A DNA stretch of 19,468 nt, from NCBI GenBank assembly GCA_044450345.1, contig JBIOIY010000056.1, positions 1 through 19,468 on the forward strand, given 5' to 3'. Positions 3,537 to 19,467 of the stretch are shown here, piece by piece (positions within the stretch are counted from its first letter, which is position 1; each line of letters starts with the position of its first letter). The stretch comes from Thermodesulfovibrionales bacterium (lineage in GTDB: Bacteria; Nitrospirota; Thermodesulfovibrionia; Thermodesulfovibrionales; UBA6898). The position numbers and the translations under genes are program-made. The notes below the pieces were generated by a model. It made no database searches. It was not told the origin of the DNA and saw nothing but the letters and a program-made list of their open reading frames with translations.

Positions 3537-5609
3537 TTAATCGTCAGCAGGATAGCCCGTTTTTTGAGGCGCACCATGGTCTTCTTCGCAGGCGGAACCG
3601 TTGCCGTCCCACATGAGGACGCAGTCCCTTCCTTTCATCTTTGCCTTGTACAGCGCCCTGTCAGCGCATCTGATAAGATGGTCCTTCAGTCCGCCGCAGT
3701 CCGGGAACATCGAGATTCCCGCACTTATCGTAATCTGCTTTGCCGGGAACCTCTTCCATGCCAGCTGTATCTGGTCCCTGATGTTCTTCATTATCCTCTC
3801 CGCCACCCCTAGTGCCTCTGCCTTCGATGTCTGCGGCATCAGGATTACGAATTCGTCCCCCCCGAACCTTACGAGTATGTCGTTAGCCCTCACCGCGGCA
3901 GACATGATCGAGGCGACCTCCTTCAGGATATAATCCCCGGCCAGATGGCCCTCGGCGTCATTGAAGAGCTTGAAGATGTCGATGTCCATTATCACGAGGG
4001 ACATAGGGAGAGCGTACCGCCTTGCCCGCCGGGATTCTTCATCGAGGCGGATATTGAAGTATCGCCTGTTAAAAAGACCGGTGAGCGGATCAGTTATGGA
4101 AAGCTCCCTCATCTGTTCCGACCTCTCGTGATAGTCGCAGAGCCTCAGGAGGACGGATGCCTGAGAAACAAAGCCGGCAAGGGTACTGATGTCCTTTTCC
4201 GAAAAAGGCTCGCCAGAGTACTTGTCCGAGAGGTTCAGGACCCCTATCGTCTCATCCGCCACCTTCAGCGGTAAGCTGATCGATGAGGGCGTCCTATAAT
4301 GGGATTTAACTGCAGACGTATACTCCAAGATCACCTCTTCGCGGTCGGTGAGGACCGGCTCTCCCGTTTCATAGACCCTTCCTGCAATGCCCTCACCAGG
4401 TCTCACCCTCACGCTTCCCATAAGCCACCGGTTGATGCCTTTCGAGGCAAAGACCCGGAGCGTCTTCTCGTCGTATTCCGGCATCATGAGAGAGCATTTC
4501 TCAGCGCCAACGAGCTCAGATGCCTCACTGACGATGCCTTCATAGAGGCGTTCAGGCTCCCTGAAGTGAGAATAGAGGCTGAATATCCTGTTCGAGACCT
4601 GTCCCAGCGATACGGCTTTTCTTTCGTAGTCCTCCTTCTGCTGCCTTATGCCGCAGAGGTAAGATGAGAGCATGCAGAGTTCCTGCACCGCATTGAACGC
4701 CTCCTTGTCAAGAAGGGTGTTAAAGACGCCGAGGAACCCGAACGAGCCGAACGCGGAAGACAGGGGAAAGAGATACATCGATACGACCTCTTCCGGAAAG
4801 CCGCTGTACCAAAGCTCGTGCCCGTCAAGGACTGCGGCGGGTCTGCCGGACGCCGACGCCTGGGAAAAGAATTGGTTATCTTTTGAAAGGTCGATCTGCT
4901 GAATCAGGCCGCTCTGCCTGCCGGCCGCAACTTCGGGGATAAAGGATTCGTTTCCCTTCGAAAAGACCGCGGCTGTATCCACATTGAACAGGAAAATGAC
5001 CGCGTCGACGATTGTCCGGTAAATGTCCTTTATCAGGGTGTCCGAGTTCATGTTCGCCATGAGACTCACAATCGTCCTTGAGCATCTCCATTTCCTGCTC
5101 AGCTCGTCTTTCTCATGGCCCGATGAGATCAGATTCTCTATAAGAGAATGGATACTTTGCAGCCTGCCTGTCATCTGCTCGGAAGGGATGACCGTGATCT
5201 CCTTCAGCCAGCCTTCCATTCCCTTCCTCTCAAGGCCGAACTTGCCGGCGCTTCGCACATAAAACATCTTGAAATCCTCGGCAGACGCATAAAACGCCTC
5301 CGCAGTTGCCACCAGTCTCAGGTCTTTGTAATTAATCGGCAGAACAACGAGATGCTGCATTGTATAAGGCTGGATAATAAACGGGTTGCTCCTCTTCAGC
5401 GAGAGTCCGAGTTGTTCTTCGATGAAGCTGTCGTATAGTTTCTGTCCGTTCTTGTCCGACTTTAGAAACGACAGGAGTGCGTCCTCCTTAACAGGCGATA
5501 TGAGCCGGTTCAGTCTGTCGTCATATAACGAGTAGTGAAGCCCCGTAAGCACCGAGAGGGACTCGAATGCCTTTGTCAGGGACTGCACGTCAAGAAAACG
5601 GTACCCCAT
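3537..5609 (-). CDS. Diguanylate cyclase: PocR-like N-domain, two GAF-like domains, GGDEF
   Basis: Start ATG 5609 with GGAGG RBS. TDPLTGLFNRRYF, DID.FK.FND..GH..GD, RAND I-site, RFGGDEF. GAF signature GEGIAGRV...SLPLKVADETIGVLNLSDK..FSEKD. Confidence 0.93.
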   Translation of the reverse strand: MGYRFLDVQSLTKAFESLSVLTGLHYSLYDDRLNRLISPVKEDALLSFLKSDKNGQKLYDSFIEEQLGLSLKRSNPFIIQPYTMQHLVVLPINYKDLRLVATAEAFYASAEDFKMFYVRSAGKFGLERKGMEGWLKEITVIPSEQMTGRLQSIHSLIENLISSGHEKDELSRKWRCSRTIVSLMANMNSDTLIKDIYRTIVDAVIFLFNVDTAAVFSKGNESFIPEVAAGRQSGLIQQIDLSKDNQFFSQASASGRPAAVLDGHELWYSGFPEEVVSMYLFPLSSAFGSFGFLGVFNTLLDKEAFNAVQELCMLSSYLCGIRQQKEDYERKAVSLGQVSNRIFSLYSHFREPERLYEGIVSEASELVGAEKCSLMMPEYDEKTLRVFASKGINRWLMGSVRVRPGEGIAGRVYETGEPVLTDREEVILEYTSAVKSHYRTPSSISLPLKVADETIGVLNLSDKYSGEPFSEKDISTLAGFVSQASVLLRLCDYHERSEQMRELSITDPLTGLFNRRYFNIRLDEESRRARRYALPMSLVIMDIDIFKLFNDAEGHLAGDYILKEVASIMSAAVRANDILVRFGGDEFVILMPQTSKAEALGVAERIMKNIRDQIQLAWKRFPAKQITISAGISMFPDCGGLKDHLIRCADRALYKAKMKGRDCVLMWDGNGSACEEDHGAPQKTGYPADD

Positions 5610-5751
5610 AGCTTGCCCTCCTGCAAGAGCTACACTTGAATAAAATGCATGTAAAAACCCGACTGCCCACACATAAGCAAGCCTCCCGCCGTAGCGGCGC
5701 AATAAAAAGAACTCGATTATTCAGTCCGCAGGCCCCCCCGGGTCGCTACTA

Positions 5752-5776: not shown

Positions 5777-5952
5777 CCTCAACAGAATTCTTGCCTGAGG
5801 TGATACGGATGCAGGCCGACGTGCCGGCGCGGCCGCGCAAAGCCGATCTCATTGCCTTGACGACGCCTTGAAACCCGCTAATATGTAATTATGACAAAGA
5901 GGCGCCGGGATTCTTGCTTTGCCGCCGGACTATCAACTAAGGACACCCAACT

Positions 5953-6063
5953 ATGTGGATAGTCAGGCTTGCGCTGCGGAGGCCTTACACGATTGCAGTC
6001 ATGGCGCTCCTGATCCTTGTACTCGGGACTCTTTCGGCCACCCGGATGATAAATTGCGCTTGA
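5953..6063 (+). pseudogene. 36-aa ORF matching the N-terminus (TM1) of an AcrB/CusA-family RND permease; remnant or small membrane protein
   Basis: AAGGA RBS then ATG 5953: MWIVRLALRRPYTIAVMALLILVLGTLSATRMINCA*. This closely resembles the MWIVRLALRRP...RMPVDIFP start of RND permeases, with similarity lost after RM. Confidence 0.8.
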
Positions 6064-6082
6064 ACCGTCAATGTCTTAGAAT
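6054..6082 (+). promoter_or_regulatory. Putative sigma70 promoter giving a leaderless arsS mRNA
   Basis: TTGCGC-17 bp-TAGAAT, with the -10 ending 7 nt before ATG 6090. No SD sequence upstream of that ATG. Confidence 0.5.
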
Positions 6083-6089
6083 AAATGCC

Positions 6090-7055
6090 ATGGAGAATGG
6101 CGCCGGCTTCGGAGACAGGATAAGGGATATACAACCCGCGGCCCTTTCGGCGATCGATATCTCTATCCTCCAGGTGAACCTCGGCTACAGATGCAATATG
6201 GCCTGCGCACATTGCCACGTCGATGCACGGCCCGACAGGGACCAGATAATGGGGGAGGAGACGATCGAGGCCGTCATTGAAGTCTTGAAGGACAACGATA
6301 TCAGGACGCTCGATATCACAGGCGGTGCCCCCGAGATGAACCCCCATTTTGCCCATCTCGTCAAAAAGGCCAGAGAGGCGGGACACCGTGTCATTGTCCG
6401 CACAAACCTCACCATATTTTTTGAAGAGGGCATGGAACGCCTCCCGGAATTCATGAGTGAGAACTCGGTCAGGGTCATCGCATCCATGCCTTGTTATACA
6501 GAGGACAACGTAGACCGCGCAAGAGGGAAAGGGACTTTTAAGAAATGCGCAAAGGCCCTCGCCATGCTGAACAGCTTCGGATATGGAAACGGTTCTGCTG
6601 ATAAGGGACTGGACCTCGTATATAACCCCTCAGGTCCATTTTTGGCGCCTCCTCAAAAGGCTTTGGAAGAAGACTACAGAAGAGAGTTGAAGAGGAATTA
6701 CGGAATAACGTTCGACAGTCTGTATGCGTTTACGAACATGCCGATAGGCAGGTTCAGGGACTTGCTTGTAAAGACCGGCCGCCTGGAAAAGTATAGTGAA
6801 TACCTCATCTCCGCCTTTAACCCCGAAAACCTCAAGGGCCTTATGTGCAGAAAGCTCCTGAGCATTGGATGGGACGGACGGCTGTACGACTGCGATTTCA
6901 ACCAGATGCTCAACGTCCCGGTGCATCCGCATTTCCCGCAGCACATTAAGGAATTCGACTACTCACGTCTTAAGAACAGGCCTATCGCAGTCGGCGACCA
7001 CTGCTACGCCTGCACCGCAGGACAGGGCTCCACCTGAATAGGCGCAATCGCCTGA
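6090..7055 (+). CDS. arsS: Radical SAM/Cys-rich (seleno)protein of the ArsS family (DUF3641 C-terminus); UGA 7035-7037 read as Sec
   Basis: LQVNLGYRCNMACAHCHVDA (CxxxCxxC), LDITGGAPEMNP, LVYNP.G.FL.PPQ..LE..Y, GLMCR, LYDCDFNQML, HCYACTAGQGST-TGA-IGAIA-TGA. Family members end CTAG.GSSCGGAL. Start set at ATG 6090. Confidence 0.9.
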
Positions 7056-7080
7056 CAGGCAGTTTGCCTGTATCGCGCTT
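7040..7080 (+). promoter_or_regulatory. Putative bacterial SECIS element
   Basis: Upper stem ACAGGCA/TGCCTGT (7055-7061/7065-7071) with a G-initiated GTT loop 24 nt after the UGA. Lower stem AGGCGC/GCGCTT (7040-7045/7075-7080). Confidence 0.7.
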
Positions 7081-7148
7081 AGAGTAATTTATATCTATAC
7101 ACTTCGCGGTGCATGCTGCGGGCCTCTTAACACCAATAATTCACACGC

Positions 7149-7272
7149 AGCACGAGGAGACCATCTTCTCTCTCATTCTCGTCCCGATGAATCGGGGCTC
7201 CGAGGCAATTTCTCCAAAAATATTCTGTTTGTTGGAGAAATTAAAACCGTTCCAAGATAGTCACCTCCTGCT
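7149..7272 (-). repeat. Structured intergenic element, copy A (three-way junction)
   Basis: Closing stem 7149-7167/7254-7272, stem AATTTCTCCAA/TTGGAGAAATT (7207-7217/7232-7242), and CTCG..CGAG stem capped by TCCCGATGAATCGGGG. Homologous to the reverse complement of 7317-7446. Confidence 0.8.
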
Positions 7273-7316
7273 TCTGCGCCATGACAAGCAGGAAGTTTTA
7301 TGAATAATTTGGACTC

Positions 7317-7446
7317 AGGATTGAGAGGGAACTGTCTTAGAGCGGCTTCAATTTCTCGTATTGCCCGACGCAGGAGGGGGAGAAATTGCCTCGGAGGTCG
7401 CCGCGGCGACCGAGAATGAGCGAAAAGATGGTTTCCTCTCAATCCT
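7317..7446 (+). repeat. Structured intergenic element, copy B (inverted relative to A)
   Basis: 22-bp closing stem 7317-7338/7425-7446 (3 G-U pairs), CAATTTCTC/GAGAAATTG (7349-7357/7380-7388), CTCG/CGAG stem capped by GGTCGCCGCGGCGACC. Confidence 0.8.
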
Positions 7447-11799: not shown

Positions 11800-12810
11800 T
11801 CAGGCGATCGCCGGCGTATTATTGGATGAGAGTAAATCCAGCAGCTGGAGATGGAACTTCTTTTTGTTCCTTTTCTGTTCGTACATCAACCCATCGGCCT
11901 TGGCGATCAGATCGTCGATGGAACACTGACTCCCCGGTTCAAGGCGGGCTATGCCGACGCTTATCGAGAGCGTGTAGCTGCGCTCATATCTGAGATTGTG
12001 CAGTTCTATTTTCCTTTGCAGACGGGCGGTGTATACACCGAGTTTATCATGAGACGGTTCGATCAGGAGAACAACGAATTCATCTCCTCCGATGCGGGCT
12101 ATTATATCTACGTCGCGAAAACATTCCCTGAGGATGGCTGCAGTCTCGATGAGCGCCCGGTCGCCTTCCTGATGTCCGAACGTATCATTGATCTTTTTTA
12201 AATCGTCCAGATCCGCGGAAAGCAGCGACATCCCTTTTTTCAGGCGCTGCGATATCTTTAACTGCTGCCCGGCCAGGGCAAAAAAGCCCCGCCTGTTGAA
12301 GAGGCCCGTAAGTTCATCCGTATTGGACAGGTTGAGCAGTTTCTCTTCATTCATTTTGAGTTCGCTGATGTCCTTTGAGATCACGGACACCGCCGCTATT
12401 TTCCCATCGGTTTCTATTATGGGACTCAATGTGCGAAGAAAATATCTGCCGTCCCTGTGACTTCTGTGCACATGTTGGACGGACTTCCCTGTACGGAATA
12501 CCTCAATGACCTTCTCGATAAAAAATCGCGTTTCATCGGGGGAATGGGACCTGCCGTATGGCTGTCCCACTATTTGTCCGCTCGTAAGGCCTAACCTTGA
12601 CTCGTGTTTCTTGTTCATGAAGAGATACCTGTATTTCCTGTCTATGAGATATATGGAGTCATCGGTAGATTCGACGACGAGACGATATTTATCCTCCCCT
12701 CCCTTCAGTAACGCGGGGAAGACTTCCGGTGTCTTTATATCGGGAAGGCATTGAGGGGGCCCTGTCCCGTCGTTCGATGGCTGTCTCTTTGTCTTGTCCC
12801 CGTCTTTCAT
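11800..12810 (-). CDS. PAS-domain diguanylate cyclase
   Basis: Start ATG 12810 with GGAG RBS. PAS (KYRLVVESTDDSIYLID...ISKDISELK), TDELTGLFNRRGF, DLDDLKKINDTFGHQEGD, RDVD I-site, RIGGDEF. Confidence 0.93.
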   Translation of the reverse strand: MKDGDKTKRQPSNDGTGPPQCLPDIKTPEVFPALLKGGEDKYRLVVESTDDSIYLIDRKYRYLFMNKKHESRLGLTSGQIVGQPYGRSHSPDETRFFIEKVIEVFRTGKSVQHVHRSHRDGRYFLRTLSPIIETDGKIAAVSVISKDISELKMNEEKLLNLSNTDELTGLFNRRGFFALAGQQLKISQRLKKGMSLLSADLDDLKKINDTFGHQEGDRALIETAAILRECFRDVDIIARIGGDEFVVLLIEPSHDKLGVYTARLQRKIELHNLRYERSYTLSISVGIARLEPGSQCSIDDLIAKADGLMYEQKRNKKKFHLQLLDLLSSNNTPAIA

Positions 12811-13223
12811 AAACAACTCCAACATTAAAATATTGCAAGAAATATGCCCCCAGTCAGGGACGATACGGCAAATCATATCAAAACAGCGGCGAACTGCTGG
12901 AAGTCACCGTATCTTATTGATTTCGCCGCCCCAAAAGAGAGTATATGAGACCTTCCCCACTCCTTTAATAAAGGTGTACATCTCCCGCGTTTCCCTCCAT
13001 TATTTGACATAGTGAAATCATCTTCTCTAATTATGTATTGAAAGTGTCATCCTCCTTCGATAATTGCAATACGTTTTACGATGAATAACAAATTGATTTT
13101 TACAAGAATAAATCCCTTTTTTTAGCGGGCGCGATGGTTGGAGGCAGCGGGAAATAGGAAGCGGGAAGTAATCTTAAAGGGGTTCTCTTTTTAGCGGTTA
13201 CGGTCTGTCCTGGAGTTACCGGG

Positions 13224-13925
13224 TCAGTCGGCCTTGTCGAGGACCAGGACGAATTCCTGCAGTTTCATCCTGTCCCCCTCAGAAATCTCGACAAACTCTA
13301 TCCCGATGTCATAGCGCGAATCGCCCTCCTCACCGGTCTTTAAACAGGAGGCGATCCTCCCCACAAACTTTATCTGCGTATCTCCGGAGAGAAGGATTTC
13401 CATGGGAATTCTTTCCTCGATTTCGAGCGGACCTTCGCTTGAGATGAGCATGCCTCCGAGGCTGAGCTTAACGACTGCATAACTCTCAGCGACGTCCAGG
13501 ACCGCTTTCTTCAGGGTCGAGGGGACGAGGAACCTCATGCTGCATCTCATCCCGCCGGCCTTATCCACTTCTTCGCGCAAGAAGTTCGCGTGTACATCGA
13601 GGAAATTCGTGAGTTCCCGCATTTTGTCGGTTGACATGGTGACAAATTTTATGCCCGCGGTATAAATCGGTATTACTTCGCCCCGTATGCCCTTTTTCGT
13701 CCCGCTCATCCTTGACCAGACAACGGAGCCCTTTAATGAAATGGTCTTATTGCCATCCCCTACATTGAGCGTATATACGCTGCCCATGTTGAGCCGTCTG
13801 TCTACCCTGATCGAGATTCCGCCGACGCTGATATCATGGATCTCGACCTCATTGGCGAACATCATTTTGCCGTTGATCCCTAGGATATCGACCGAAAATC
13901 TCTTATATCTTCTATTTTCCCGCAT
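13224..13925 (-). CDS. Tandem PilZ-domain protein
   Basis: Start ATG 13925 (AGGGGG RBS). PilZ1: RRYKR + DISVGG + GIKF. PilZ2: RCSMR + KLSLGG + GIEF. Confidence 0.9.
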   Translation of the reverse strand: MRENRRYKRFSVDILGINGKMMFANEVEIHDISVGGISIRVDRRLNMGSVYTLNVGDGNKTISLKGSVVWSRMSGTKKGIRGEVIPIYTAGIKFVTMSTDKMRELTNFLDVHANFLREEVDKAGGMRCSMRFLVPSTLKKAVLDVAESYAVVKLSLGGMLISSEGPLEIEERIPMEILLSGDTQIKFVGRIASCLKTGEEGDSRYDIGIEFVEISEGDRMKLQEFVLVLDKAD

Positions 13926-14008
13926 CCGGTTTCCCCCTGTCTCCTGCCTGCGTATACCCATCATGCGGGTACGGATAGGCTGGGCGACCCCAATGGCACT
14001 TTTTTTAT

Positions 14009-14037
14009 ATCATAACGACGAGACGCATAATAATCAA
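14009..14037 (-). promoter_or_regulatory. sigma70 promoter for the PilZ gene
   Basis: Minus strand TTGATT-17 bp-TATGAT. Confidence 0.65.
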
Positions 14038-14105
14038 GCGTTCTGAAAAACCACAATCCGCTCTTAGCTCCGGGGGTTCCACCGTCTGCATGCAGCCGTG
14101 TTTTG

Positions 14106-14134
14106 TTGACAGCCGATACATAAGCGGGTACGAT
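14106..14134 (+). promoter_or_regulatory. sigma70 promoter for the thioesterase
   Basis: TTGACA-17 bp-TACGAT. Confidence 0.75.
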
Positions 14135-14177
14135 TTGTTATCACGAGATGCGGGGTAGGTGGGTAAGGAAAATGTCG

Positions 14178-14684
14178 ATGATGGAAGGCAAAAAGGTGGC
14201 GGACAGCAGCGTAATTATCGCGCAGGTGATGATCCCTCAGGACGCGAACCCTGCCGGCAATGTTCACGGCGGGGTCATCATGAAGCTCATCGATACCGCC
14301 GCAGCCGTTGCGGCAAGCAGACATGCGAGGTGCAATACTGTAACGGCCTCTATCGACAGGCTCGACTTTCACCACGCGGTATATGTGGGCGACCTTCTTT
14401 TCTTCAAGGCCGGCCTGAACATGGTCGGCAGGACTTCGATGGAAGTGGGAGTCAGGGTTGAGGCGGAGAATATCTTCACAGGTGAGATCAGACATACCGC
14501 CTCGGCCTATCTCACCTTTGTGGCGCTTGACAAGGAGGGTAGGCCTACCGGGGTGCCTCCGCTTGTTCTCGAAACGGATGAAGAGAAGAGGCGCAACCGT
14601 GAGGCGCTCAAAAGAAAAGAGATCCGGCTTGCCGAGAAAAAGCGGGAAGAAAGCTGCCAGCTCGATCGCCGAAGCTGCACGTAG
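14178..14684 (+). CDS. Acyl-CoA thioesterase (hotdog fold, YciA-like)
   Basis: PQDANPAGNVHGGVIMKLID, VTASIDRLDF, VGRTSMEVGVRV, AYLTFVALD. Start is 14172, 14178 or 14181; the AAGGA RBS best fits 14178. Confidence 0.95.
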   Translation: MMEGKKVADSSVIIAQVMIPQDANPAGNVHGGVIMKLIDTAAAVAASRHARCNTVTASIDRLDFHHAVYVGDLLFFKAGLNMVGRTSMEVGVRVEAENIFTGEIRHTASAYLTFVALDKEGRPTGVPPLVLETDEEKRRNREALKRKEIRLAEKKREESCQLDRRSCT

Positions 14685-14710
14685 AAGAGTCTTTGCGCGG
14701 AAACAGATTC

Positions 14711-15784
14711 TCAATGTTTCTTGAGCGGCAGGCGGATCGTAAAGGTGCTTCCTTTCCCAGGGGCACTCTCGACAGAGATGGTGCCTCTGTGCTCCTGAAC
14801 CACTTTCAAAGTGTAGGTGAGGCCGAGGCCAGGACCATATATCTTCGACGTAAAGAGCGGTTCGAAGATGTCCTTTATCTTTTCTCTCGATATCCCTTTC
14901 CCGTTATCTGAGACCCCTATCTCGATGCATCCTTCTGTGACGGAACTTGATAGTCTGAGCACCCTCGGCTCCCCGGTCATGGCCTCGATGGCATTCTGTA
15001 TGAGGTTGGCGATTGCCTGCGTCAGTTGCATGGGATCGGCCTGTATCAGCGGGAGATTATTCGTGAAGTCGGTTTCAACATCTACAGCCTTTTCCTCGAA
15101 CTCCCGTTCAAACAGCATAAGGGCTTTCATGACGACATCATTGACGTTCGTCTGCTCGAGATACGAGAGGGACATTATCTGTATCCCGATGATTTTTTTT
15201 ATCATTTTTTCGAGTTTTGAGACGTCTTCCATGATCATTTCCATGTATTTCCTGTTGAGATTACCCTCAGGGAGGTTGTCGTAAACCCTGCGCGCAAAAC
15301 CTCCTATCGAAACAAGGGGATTTCTTACCTCATGTGCGACCTCGTCCATCATCTGCTCCAGGGCTCCCAGTTTTTCCTCTTCCACCAGTTTTTCGTGTGC
15401 CTGCTTTATCTTCAGGAGAGACCTGACGCGTGCGGAAAGCTCCTTGTAATCAAAGGGCTTCGCCAAATAATCATCGGCTCCGGTATCGAGCCCTTTTACC
15501 TTGTCCGATATCTCGCTTCTTGCCGTCAACATCAGGACCGGGATATACTTTGTATCGATGTTCGCCTTGAGCCTCTCACAAACCTCGTATCCGTTCAGCT
15601 TTGGCATCATGACATCGAGGATAATCAAATCGGGACCGTATGACTCGACGAACGCGAGGCATTCCTCGCCGTCGTAAGCCTCAGAGGTATCATACCCTTC
15701 GGCCCTCAGTCTCTTTCTCAGTAGCTCAACCGTATCCACGGTATCGTCGACAATCAAAATCTTATTGAACCTTTCCATCGGCAT
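14711..15784 (-). CDS. Receiver-histidine kinase hybrid (REC-HisKA-HATPase), cytoplasmic
   Basis: ILIVDD, LDVMMP, LTA, KPF. H-box VAHEVRNPL, N-box NLIQNAIEA, DNGKGI, FEPLFTSK, GPGLGL. Start 15784 or 15778. Confidence 0.93.
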   Translation of the reverse strand: MPMERFNKILIVDDTVDTVELLRKRLRAEGYDTSEAYDGEECLAFVESYGPDLIILDVMMPKLNGYEVCERLKANIDTKYIPVLMLTARSEISDKVKGLDTGADDYLAKPFDYKELSARVRSLLKIKQAHEKLVEEEKLGALEQMMDEVAHEVRNPLVSIGGFARRVYDNLPEGNLNRKYMEMIMEDVSKLEKMIKKIIGIQIMSLSYLEQTNVNDVVMKALMLFEREFEEKAVDVETDFTNNLPLIQADPMQLTQAIANLIQNAIEAMTGEPRVLRLSSSVTEGCIEIGVSDNGKGISREKIKDIFEPLFTSKIYGPGLGLTYTLKVVQEHRGTISVESAPGKGSTFTIRLPLKKH

Positions 15785-16190
15785 TCCTTCTCCCTTCCTC
15801 ATTATCCTTCAGGTAATACCCGATCTGTTCCGGGAGTTCACGAATATCAATAGGTTTCGGTATAAATCCGATACAGCCGGCATTCATTGCCCTCTCCTTA
15901 TCTCCCTTCATGACATGGGCTGTGAGGGCGACGATTGGTATGTCTCTGTACTCTTCCTGACTTTTCAGTCTTCGTATTACCTCATAGCCGTCCATTTTGG
16001 GAAGGGAGATATCCATCAGGATCAGACCGGGTCTTTCATCTTGGGCCTTCCTCAGCGCGTCTTCTCCATCAACGGCCTCGACCATATCGTATCCTCTGTT
16101 CTTCAGCACTTTGACCACGAGTTCACGGTTATCCCTATTATCATCAACGACCAGTATCTTTTGGTGTAAACTCTTATTTATTTTCTCCAT
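15762..16190 (-). CDS. Single-domain response regulator (DivK/CheY-like)
   Basis: ILVVDDN, ILMDISLPKMDG, VALTAH, GFIPKPID. No output domain. Confidence 0.93.
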   Translation of the reverse strand: MEKINKSLHQKILVVDDNRDNRELVVKVLKNRGYDMVEAVDGEDALRKAQDERPGLILMDISLPKMDGYEVIRRLKSQEEYRDIPIVALTAHVMKGDKERAMNAGCIGFIPKPIDIRELPEQIGYYLKDNEEGRRNADGKVQ

Positions 16191-16215
16191 AGTTCTCTCC
16201 GATGCTGCAGAAACA

Positions 16216-18918
16216 TTATGATTTGTCGCATTTGGAGATGGTCTCCTTGATCTCCTTCAAAAGTCCCTCGGTCGTCAACTTGGCTCTGTTTAAGATGCCG
16301 CGAATCCTGCCGTTGAGTTCTGAGATCTGTCTTTCGGTCAGGTCTTTATGGGTAACGACTATAAGAGGGATGTTCCTGACCTCATCGTTCGTCTTCATAT
16401 ATTCAATAACATCGGCACCGCTCACTGCCGGCATCGTAAGGTTCAGCACCATCAGGTCGGGCCTTGATTCCTTTATGATATCAATCGCCTCCTGGCTTGT
16501 ATATGCCTCCATTACCTGATAGCCGGCCTCGTTGAGCATTGTGCCGATCAGTTTTACTGCATCCTGCTCATTATCCACGACCAATATCCTTCTGATTTTC
16601 GTCATTTTTTCGAGGTTCTTCAACTTTCTCAAGAGGACGTCCTTTTCAATCGGCTTCACGATATATTCGGCAGCTCCGAGACTGAACCCCAACTGCTTTT
16701 CGTCTATGATCGAAAGTATGATGACAGGAATATCCTGAGTTTCCGGTGTATTCTTCAGCTCACGTAACACCTGCCAACCGTCTTTTACGGGCATCATGAT
16801 ATCCAGAGTTATGGCTACAGGCCTGATCTCTATGGCCTTCTTAACGACATTTTCACTGCTGATAAGACCTACTACGTGATAATCCTTTCCCAGGTATTTC
16901 CGGATAATTTCTACGGCCTCGGGATTGTCGTCAACCGCAAGGACGTTTTTTTTAAGTTCTGCAGAAACGCGTTCCTCTGTACCTGTTGAAACCCGATTTA
17001 TCTCGTATAACTCGTCTGTCTCGATCAGCAGTCTTTCGATAAGCTCGCATCCCTTGCAAAAGTCGATCTTTTCGGGATAAGAAGCGACCTTCGTGCCTTT
17101 GCAGTGAGTTCCGGTGATCAACCAGCATCTGCTCTCTTTAGTGCTGTGAGCGGGACAGCTTGTCTGACCACAGTGAAAATATTCCCAGCATTTAACCGGA
17201 TTTCCCGCATACCGGGGCTCTTTCAAAAATATCCCGGCAGCGGTGCTAAAATACGAAGACAGACCTTCTGCCATTGAGGTCTCCAGTGACGGCTCAGCAG
17301 ATTTTTCCAAAACCGACTTATCTGCCGGAAGGGTGAAGCAGAATCTGCTGCCGCTTCCGTATTCGCTTGTCAGCCAGATCACGCCTTTATGGAGTACGAC
17401 GAGGCCTCGTGCGATACTCAGTCCGAGACCGGTGCCCTCGTACTGGCGGGCGGACGAGACGTCCAGCTGACTGAACTTGTCAAAGAGTTTCGTTATGTCT
17501 TCCTCCCTGATCCCTATCCCCGTGTCCTCGACGCAGACCTCCACGAAAAGCGGCGTTTCTCCTGATTTGATGCCCTTGTCGGAGGGGCGGGCCGTTATTG
17601 CGATACCTCCTTTATGAGTGAACTTCACGGCATTGGAGAGTAGGTTTATCAGGATCTGTGCAACTTTGTCTTCATCTGCAAAAATGAGCGGCAGGTTTTC
17701 GCGGAAGTCAAGTCTGATCGAAAGCCCCTTCTGTCGTATCACAGGTTCGAAGGTCGAAAGAACGGATTCGGTAACCCGCCTGAGGTCGATCTCCCGGGGA
17801 TGCAATTCTATCTTGCCTGATTCTATCTTGGAAATGTCCAGGACATCATTGATCAATTGCAGGAGATGCTTTGCGTTGCTCACCACCTTGTGAAGACTCT
17901 TGCCCTGCTCTTCGTTAATCGGCCCGTCCACCCCGTCGATCAGAAGGTCCGTATAACCGATAATCGCGTTCATCGGCGTGCGGAGCTCATGGGACATGTT
18001 GGCCAGAAAGGTAGATTTCAGTTTGTCCAGTTCCCTGAGTTCCCTGTTCGCCCTTTCGAGGAGGGCCAGGAGCTCGGTCCTTTCATTCAACAAGTTCGTC
18101 TTTCTCGTAACCTCGCGCTCCAATTTTCTGCTGAATGATGAGATGCTGTCGACCATGTAGTTGAACGTATTGCCGAGCACTCCGATCTCATTTTCTGTCA
18201 TAACATCCACTGAGACGGACATGTCCCCCTCTGCAAACCGCTTCGCCTTTTCAGCAAGGTTTTCCACAGGGCGCCTGATGAGTTTGGTCAGCATCGCATA
18301 AATGATCGCGATCATCACGCTAATGCTGAACACTCCCAGCAATATGGTCCTGTTTCTCGCAGCAGCGACCTGGGCATATGTGCTGTTGGCATCAATCTTC
18401 AGTATCATGCTCCCGAGCACCATTCGGGAGGACCCGTGACAGTGATAACATTCGGTTTCGTTCAGCAGGGGGTGCATGATGAAGAGGTATCTTCTGCCCC
18501 TGATCTCATCGAGAAAAGTCCTCTGCGGTCCCCCCTTCGCTAGTACCTCATTCAGAGTGCGAATAAAGGTCTTGCTATACAGGGAATCCGACAACGTGGT
18601 TCTAATCACATCCTGATTAGTGGAATAGACTATTTCCTTATCGAAGTCGCAGACGTGCACCTCGACATCCTTTATCTTTTCCCGTATCCCCGATAACTGT
18701 CTTGCAACGCCGTCTGAGTCTCCCACGGACATGGGATATTTAAAGGAAGAATGGATTGATGAGGCCAGCTCGCTGCCATGCATCTCCATGGTCTCTGTCC
18801 GGTCCTTCGTGCCGTAATAGAGGCGCACGACAATCTCTACCCCGAGGACGAGTACGATCGTGATTATTATGACAGCAAGTATCTCGTTACCCAGACGTTT
18901 CCGTACAAAGCCGAACAT
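16216..18918 (-). CDS. Membrane hybrid sensor histidine kinase: periplasmic heme-c sensor, HAMP, HisKA, HATPase, Cys-rich insert, REC, pseudo-REC
   Basis: Start ATG 18918 (GGGGAG RBS). Two TMs flank CYHCH (18436-18450). HAMP ENEIGVLGNTFNYM, FLANMSHELRTPMN, NLLSNAVKFT, DTGIGI, GTGLGL. CWEYFHC..CPA..CWLITGTHC..CKGC, LDIMMP, then LNLTMP. Confidence 0.95.
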   Translation of the reverse strand: MFGFVRKRLGNEILAVIIITIVLVLGVEIVVRLYYGTKDRTETMEMHGSELASSIHSSFKYPMSVGDSDGVARQLSGIREKIKDVEVHVCDFDKEIVYSTNQDVIRTTLSDSLYSKTFIRTLNEVLAKGGPQRTFLDEIRGRRYLFIMHPLLNETECYHCHGSSRMVLGSMILKIDANSTYAQVAAARNRTILLGVFSISVMIAIIYAMLTKLIRRPVENLAEKAKRFAEGDMSVSVDVMTENEIGVLGNTFNYMVDSISSFSRKLEREVTRKTNLLNERTELLALLERANRELRELDKLKSTFLANMSHELRTPMNAIIGYTDLLIDGVDGPINEEQGKSLHKVVSNAKHLLQLINDVLDISKIESGKIELHPREIDLRRVTESVLSTFEPVIRQKGLSIRLDFRENLPLIFADEDKVAQILINLLSNAVKFTHKGGIAITARPSDKGIKSGETPLFVEVCVEDTGIGIREEDITKLFDKFSQLDVSSARQYEGTGLGLSIARGLVVLHKGVIWLTSEYGSGSRFCFTLPADKSVLEKSAEPSLETSMAEGLSSYFSTAAGIFLKEPRYAGNPVKCWEYFHCGQTSCPAHSTKESRCWLITGTHCKGTKVASYPEKIDFCKGCELIERLLIETDELYEINRVSTGTEERVSAELKKNVLAVDDNPEAVEIIRKYLGKDYHVVGLISSENVVKKAIEIRPVAITLDIMMPVKDGWQVLRELKNTPETQDIPVIILSIIDEKQLGFSLGAAEYIVKPIEKDVLLRKLKNLEKMTKIRRILVVDNEQDAVKLIGTMLNEAGYQVMEAYTSQEAIDIIKESRPDLMVLNLTMPAVSGADVIEYMKTNDEVRNIPLIVVTHKDLTERQISELNGRIRGILNRAKLTTEGLLKEIKETISKCDKS

Positions 18919-18969
18919 GTCATCTCCCCTGTATCGCATACAATGCTGCTATAAAGAACAGAAGATATT

Positions 18970-19029: not shown

Positions 19030-19467
19030 TCAATGCGCGTACCCGTGAATCAGAGGTTTATACCTGAATGCCTTGACCCTTTCCGGTGTATGACAGCCCT
19101 CACAGTCCTCTTTTCTGAGACGTCTTTTAACATCGAGAGGACTCTTTGTCAATATATGGGTTTTTCCCGGACCGTGGCAGACCTCGCAGCCGGTGTTTTT
19201 CATGGAGGGCGTCTGTTCCAGGCTGATAAATCCGCCGGGCCTGCCGTAACCAGTGGTGTGGCAGTTATAGCATCCCTTGATTTCTTCTTCCGAGAGGCCC
19301 TTCTGCATACGTTCTATCGCTTCGAAGGATTTGGCCTTTTTGGCAAATTTTGTGAAGTTTTCGTATTCTGTTTTGTGGCAGGACCTGCATGCCTCAGAGC
19401 CAACGTATTCGGGTATTCTATACGCCGGTTCGGCCGGCTGCATGGGTAATGTTATAGCGAAAGACGT
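19030..19467 (-). CDS. Small tetraheme c-type cytochrome, cytochrome c554-like (5' end outside the window)
   Basis: YVGSEACRSCH, CYNCHTTGYGRPGGF, GCEVCHGPG..H, CEGCH give four CxxCH motifs. The frame is open to the window edge (TSFAITLPMQPA, probably the end of a signal peptide). Confidence 0.92.
   Translation of the reverse strand, partial: TSFAITLPMQPAEPAYRIPEYVGSEACRSCHKTEYENFTKFAKKAKSFEAIERMQKGLSEEEIKGCYNCHTTGYGRPGGFISLEQTPSMKNTGCEVCHGPGKTHILTKSPLDVKRRLRKEDCEGCHTPERVKAFRYKPLIHGYAH

Follow-up and report, generated by a model that had tools for sequence, protein, structure and literature searches.

On the forward strand of a contig from a Thermodesulfovibrionales draft genome, a gene of the ArsS radical SAM family runs into an in-frame TGA, and five sense codons and a second TGA follow in the same frame. 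Does the first TGA end the protein, or is it decoded as selenocysteine (Sec)? We examined this question in the window, that is, the whole stretch of 19,468 nucleotides analysed here, and in relatives of the gene from other genomes. On the comparison of these sequences, it is highly probable that the gene (6090-7055) encodes a 321-residue ArsS-family radical SAM enzyme in which the UGA at 7035-7037 is read as Sec316. The features on which this reading draws are collected in Table 1.

Table 1. Positions of the arsS-family gene, its predicted Sec codon and associated elements in the window, and of the selD gene elsewhere in the genome.
Feature	Position	Strand	Basis or remark
arsS-family CDS	6090..7055	+	321 residues, predicted Sec at 316; translation with TGA=U
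Radical SAM CX3CX2C motif (C35, C39, C42)	6192..6215	+	93/93 aligned family members
DUF3641 part, four invariant Cys	6846..7013	+	93/93 in family alignment
Invariant DUF3641 Cys codons	C253 6846-6848; C268 6891-6893; C305 7002-7004; C308 7011-7013	+	
Predicted Sec codon UGA, residue 316	7035-7037	+	Aligned codon always TGC/TGT/TGA
Five codons after Sec (IGAIA)	7038-7052	+	x-G-[A/S]-x-x in 13/13 TGA-form loci
True stop TGA under read-through	7053-7055	+	Stop at same codon in 12/13 TGA forms
Candidate SECIS hairpin	7055-7071 (stem 7055-7061 / 7065-7071; apical loop GUU 7062-7064)	+	Folds, covariation
selD, itself a predicted selenoprotein gene	L018 1387-2442 = G000:C28	-	U at ...SSCAGUAAKF

Two possible ends of the reading frame

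The 3' end of the gene reads TGC ACC GCA GGA CAG GGC TCC ACC TGA ATA GGC GCA ATC GCC TGA, which translates as CTAGQGST-TGA-IGAIA-TGA. The first-pass annotation had reported this sequence together with a hairpin downstream of it, and this observation was correct in every detail. It had also claimed that the track of open reading frames truncates arsS at 7037; the mechanically made list does contain an entry 5919..7037, which starts at an upstream TTG and ends where table 11 places the stop. The closest database homologues are 315 aa long, which agrees with a start at the ATG at 6090. Without read-through, the frame from this ATG halts at the first TGA, and read-through adds Sec316 and IGAIA.

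Translated through the TGA, the protein scored 435.2 bits on the NCBIfam model TIGR04167 (cut-off 300), with residues 21-320 aligned to profile positions 4-303 of 303. The alignment gets to the last profile position only because the TGA is read through. TIGR04167 is an equivalog model, which the protein passes by 135 bits. Pfam DUF3641 (PF12345) matched residues 185-319 over its full length (177.9 bits, model 1-134 of 134), and Pfam Radical_SAM matched residues 29-166 (55.3 bits). The order of domains, a radical SAM core with CX3CX2C followed by DUF3641, is that of ArsS/TIGR04167. So is the place of the proposed Sec, in a C-terminal G-x-x-U position six residues from the end, where Cys-type homologues show CTAGxGSSCGGA.

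The title of TIGR04167 is "arsenosugar biosynthesis radical SAM (seleno)protein ArsS", and its older name is rSAM_SeCys. A "Radical SAM domain protein" under this accession stands among the predicted bacterial selenoproteins in the tables of PMC9312934 and PMC13188914, the latter giving GxxU as the motif of this selenoprotein family. A family example, AAR34688.1, is credited to Zhang and Gladyshev (2005) in a selenoprotein review table, and the entry also appears in a selenoproteome table of 2007 (PMC1976440). The statement in the first-pass annotation that this radical SAM/DUF3641 family has Sec-containing members is thus borne out by the NCBIfam name and by the review tables. Its word "hidden" holds for a naive track of open reading frames, but not otherwise, as the family model is already titled "(seleno)protein". 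In the literature searched, we found no discussion of Sec in ArsS under the name ArsS, the link being made only via TIGR04167 in the reviews. Since the family model carries that title and is listed in selenoprotein reviews, the arsS gene described here is a correct re-discovery, a further member of a known selenoprotein family that simple ORF calling had truncated.

The reading of the mechanical list itself is that the TGA is a plain stop. The product would then be a 315-residue ArsS without the last Cys, and the hairpin an element of the mRNA end or of mRNA stability. Table 11 terminates the frame at this codon, and 116 of the best 120 database relatives are protein records that terminate exactly one residue ahead of the Sec316 position (one of the 116 being the window's own truncated product), while the other 4 go on through this position as GS[ST]C[AVM]GA. 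Some termination, through competition by RF2, is expected at any Sec UGA, and we count this too in favour of the plain stop. What stands against it is the conservation around the TGA and the presence of Sec machinery in the genome, to which we now turn.

Cysteine, selenocysteine and the conserved tail

Our DNA-level set comprised 110 loci with 111 gene copies in total; named genomes contributed 80 of the loci, and genomes of the same class the other 30, one of which is the window locus. Rows were picked by the motif CxxC[TASI]AGxGxx, and the codon after the motif was counted. The codon aligned with the first TGA was TGC in 68 copies, TGT in 30 and TGA in 13, and no other codon occurred. In a protein alignment of 93 rows, the Sec316 column held C in 81 rows and U in 12. 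Cys was invariant in this alignment at positions 35, 39 and 42 (the radical SAM motif) and at 253, 268, 305 and 308, where the invariance of C308, and largely that of C305, is built in by the row-picking motif and that of C253 and C268 is free of it. The motif GSSCGGAL, which the first-pass annotation had quoted from homologues, does exist, many loci having for example CTAGQGSSCGGAL, and the TGA aligns with its Cys. That annotation had named alignment of the TGA with a conserved Cys as a check on its own reading; when we ran this check, the column was Cys or TGA in 111/111 copies. A plain stop would therefore discard a residue that is Cys or Sec in every copy, which argues against it.

The codons beyond the TGA are also conserved. 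All 13 TGA forms keep the pattern x-G-[A/S]-x-x, with third-base changes that are synonymous, and Cys forms show C-x-G-[A/S/T/E]-x-x at the same place. At the codon of the second TGA, the 13 TGA forms have TAG (9), TGA (2, window included), TAA (1) or no stop (1; this is L105, which continues for 12 residues). The Cys forms P0096 and P0100 likewise finish five residues past the Cys. Because 12 of the 13 TGA forms stop at this codon and Cys forms finish similarly far on, we regard the second TGA as the real stop. We also considered the second TGA as a second Sec codon and rejected this candidate, since 10 of the 13 loci have TAG or TAA there. Five in-frame codons that keep their pattern through synonymous changes, and then stop at one and the same codon, are a further point against termination at the first TGA.

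The same comparison bears on the proposal that the TGA arose through a mistake in sequencing or assembly, or that TGC or TGT recently mutated to a nonsense codon in what would now be a pseudogene. TGA is one base away from either Cys codon, and the draft assembly consists of 86 contigs. However, the same TGA occupies the same column in 12 other loci of separate genomes, each with the extension and the hairpin, and the remaining frame is intact and scores far over the TIGR04167 cut-off. We consider an error or pseudogene to be exceedingly improbable.

In the family tree, a single clade of 12 Sec and 2 Cys rows contains the TGA forms. On this tree, which is a quick one whose careful search was unfinished, the Sec/Cys label requires 2 changes, and the TGA forms may have a single origin. 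Since they belong to one clade, the TGA-form loci are kin and not independent witnesses; the shuffle statistics given below therefore overstate significance and should not be read as probabilities.

The hairpin and the selenocysteine machinery

The first-pass annotation had placed a hairpin with a G-initiated loop 24 nt past the TGA, and such a hairpin is there. Its sequence is ACAGGCA-GUU-UGCCUGU, a 7-bp stem with the loop G at 7062, so that the UGA and the loop are 24 nt apart (7038-7061). Folded alone it has an energy of -8.8 kcal/mol, and 0/200 shuffles fold equally well. As summarised in PMC13188914, a bacterial SECIS (bSECIS) has a loop of 3-9 nt, an upper stem of 4-16 bp, a distance of 16-37 nt from the UGA, a G among the first two loop bases, mostly followed by G or U, and a minimum free energy of -7.5 kcal/mol or lower. 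The arsS hairpin lies within all of these bounds, with a 3-nt GUU loop. It thus shares with the bSECIS consensus (Zhang and Gladyshev, 2005, bSECISearch; as given in PMC13188914) the small GU-first loop, the 7-bp upper stem, the spacing and the folding energy. Unlike that consensus, it has no lower stem conserved among relatives. It also lies past the true stop, whereas most bacterial SECIS elements are inside the coding sequence: the last base of the stop TGA is the first base of the stem, and since Sec stands six codons from the end, the element would be essentially untranslated.

A lone hairpin is weak evidence, because 4052 of the 111128 TGA triplets in the genome (3.6%) satisfy by chance the bSECIS-like rule that we used; it is conservation that carries the weight. 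This rule was satisfied by 12 of the 13 TGA forms (the thirteenth has two G-U pairs) versus 3 of 80 Cys forms, and what matched in those three were long hairpins with different spacings. In the alignment of the 13 TGA-form loci, 96.6% of the helix cells are paired, and 3 of the 7 stem pairs have changed on both sides; one pair is A-U in 8 loci, G-C in 3, C-G in 1 and G-U in 1. The covariation score was reached by 0/500 shuffles. When the partner strand was slid by 1-3 columns, pairing dropped to 29-40%, and RNAalifold recovered the same hairpin as a 6-bp core. The first loop base is G in 13/13 TGA forms, and its distance from the TGA is fixed.

Neighbouring structures did not behave in this way. 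An outer stem (about 7039-7045 with 7074-7080) appeared in one fold but is not kept in relatives, where RNAalifold gave the 6-bp core only, and for this reason we leave it out of the SECIS. The hairpin GGCG-CAAU-CGCC (7041-7052) was rejected as a SECIS candidate, having no loop G and no conservation. A terminator reading of the hairpin at 7055-7071 was also set aside, as no T run accompanies it and it does not resemble a terminator. Rfam at gathering scores matched neither SECIS nor any other family in the whole window, and over 6950-7150, at E values up to 10, returned only chance-level mir-6505 and nos_TCE. For the plain stop, in which the hairpin would belong to the mRNA end, the fixed distance from the TGA, the G-first loop and the missing T run are all points against.

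Sec decoding also depends on the rest of the genome, which is 91% complete. The first-pass annotation had listed selA, selB, selC and selD as genes to look for, and all four are in the genome. The tRNA-Sec gene (selC) scored 70.5 bits in Rfam against a cut-off of 47, and ARAGORN called it tRNA-SeC with anticodon tca. The selA (608.7 bits) and selB (382.4 bits) genes are over their cut-offs and adjoin each other on contig C20. Finally, selD (357.8 bits, over its cut-off) has one in-frame TGA of its own, with a 9-bp hairpin whose GUG loop lies 33 nt past that UGA.

In the mechanism that we propose, SelB and Sec-tRNA(Sec) would bind the hairpin and bring Sec to the first UGA; the ribosome would then decode five further codons (IGAIA) and end at the second UGA. 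The second UGA would escape recoding because it sits at the foot of the hairpin, too near the loop (about 6 nt away, outside the 16-37 nt window). With the conserved column, the tail, the hairpin and the complete Sec machinery all set against it, we judge termination at the first TGA to be very improbable. The claim of the first-pass annotation that the arsS "stop" is a Sec codon with a SECIS-like hairpin is thus supported by the Cys/Sec alignment, the conserved tail, the covarying hairpin and the full machinery, and we infer actual insertion of selenium into the ArsS-family protein.

Arsenic context, predicted fold and meaning

ArsS moves the 5'-deoxyadenosyl group of SAM onto dimethylarsenite, giving DDMAA, as described in PMC13598754 and also in bioRxiv 10.1101/2024.02.01.577332. 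We consider it somewhat likelier than an even chance that the ArsS-family protein of this organism, going by its sequence, forms DDMAA. No ArsM exceeded the cut-off of 263 for the NF008823 profile in this genome, which is 91% complete and in which arsM may be unassembled; the best match, at 71.4 bits, is a UbiE/MenG methyltransferase. Among five tested relatives with Sec-ArsS, four have an ArsM over the cut-off, and the NF008823 search found none in the fifth (G142). Because ArsM was not found here and the neighbours are not shared with relatives, we infer the arsenosugar role from family membership only.

The ArsM genes of the four relatives (L136-L139: G144:C193, G011:C1, G072:C18 and G114:C3) each contain one in-frame TGA. 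As this holds for 4/4, both arsenic enzymes appear to be selenoproteins in these anaerobes.

The neighbours of arsS in the window are a GAF-GGDEF gene on the opposite strand and a MacAB-type efflux set that includes an HlyD-type gene, and we found no arsenic genes within the window. We sought the GGDEF gene and the HlyD-type gene in the 1.5-kb flanks of 12 TGA-form loci and found neither. Compared with ArsS/TIGR04167, the protein thus shows no structural difference; what differs is the setting: we found no ArsM partner in this genome, and arsS sits by itself amid genes for signalling and efflux.

Other parts of the window have features of their own. Regions at 11800-18939 (-) and 3537-5702 (-) are rich in signalling genes, with two GGDEF proteins (GAF- and PAS-linked), a double-PilZ protein, a hybrid histidine kinase and two response-regulator proteins, and a multihaem cytochrome fragment lies at 19030-19443. 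The intergenic DNA at 7154-7446, flanked by the arsS hairpin and the HlyD-type gene, contains a nested inverted repeat with arms at about 7154-7215 and 7379-7438. A unit of about 100 nt from it (about 7325-7438) has about 25 genome copies on at least 15 contigs, at 71-91% identity, and the element resembles the dispersed intergenic repeats of the REP or MITE kind.

It is possible, though we think it unlikely, that Sec is inserted and yet the enzyme does not serve arsenosugar synthesis, acting instead on a methylated arsenical from outside the cell or on a different metalloid, or in a different role, with the ArsM partner missing. The lack of an ArsM match in both this genome and G142 would agree with this, as would the c-di-GMP signalling and MacAB-type efflux genes next to arsS, the lack of common neighbours in the 1.5-kb flanks of the 12 TGA-form loci, and class relatives that carry up to 8 ArsS-like copies or have ArsS-like parts in frames of about 660-695 aa. 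Against another substrate stand the 135 bits by which the protein exceeds the equivalog model and the ArsM genes of 4 of the 5 Sec-ArsS relatives, in addition to the chance that arsM is merely unassembled in a genome that is 91% complete.

The copy number and the long frames in the class are observations in their own right. G111 has 8 ArsS-like matches and G012 has 5, and the open frames of about 660-695 aa that contain an ArsS-like part include those on G015:C83 and G098:C18 among the class examples. The long frames suggest fused forms, and together with the copy numbers they hint at wider functions within the ArsS family.

We next consider the predicted fold. The AlphaFold2 model, built from an alignment of 44 rows, had a mean pLDDT of 87.6 and a pTM of 0.89, with pLDDT below 50 for residues 313-317, around Sec316. 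A search of the PDB by sequence found no ArsS, only weak radical SAM core matches to YydG. The nearest structures in Foldseek were of the twitch/SPASM type: SkfB (6efn), ChlB (9gm3), BlsE (7vob), EpeE (8ai4), anSME (4k39) and MoaA (2fb2). The fold matched these over most of its length (query-normalised TM 0.50-0.58), but at an identity of only 12-18%. Enzymes of this type have a Cys-rich C-terminal part with auxiliary Fe-S clusters. The model would be compatible with an auxiliary Fe-S cluster bound by the four invariant Cys residues of DUF3641, with Sec316 on a mobile tail.

The Sec or Cys of this flexible C-terminal tail presumably has its role in the active site, where it could be a ligand of a metalloid or of a cluster. 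A more specific and rather speculative idea, which we hold to be improbable as it stands, is that the Sec316 selenol is a direct As ligand that would hold the substrate, through an As-Se bond, for the 5'-deoxyadenosyl radical; and/or that the enzyme, in a genome where no ArsM was found, would act on scavenged methylated arsenic or another metalloid and not in a self-contained arsenosugar pathway.

The highly probable Sec reading of arsS adds nothing new on Sec decoding or on the ArsS family as such; it adds one further selenoprotein for a selenium-rich Nitrospirota-type anaerobe. It does have a consequence for annotation, in that the true product would be one of 321 residues with an invariant Sec in the catalytic region, as against a stump of 315 residues. 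As 116 of the best 120 database proteins appear truncated at the same site, enzymology or structures based on these records would miss a residue that is always Cys or Sec. Finally, the family would offer a natural case of a bacterial SECIS located outside the coding sequence, whose stem takes in the true stop codon.
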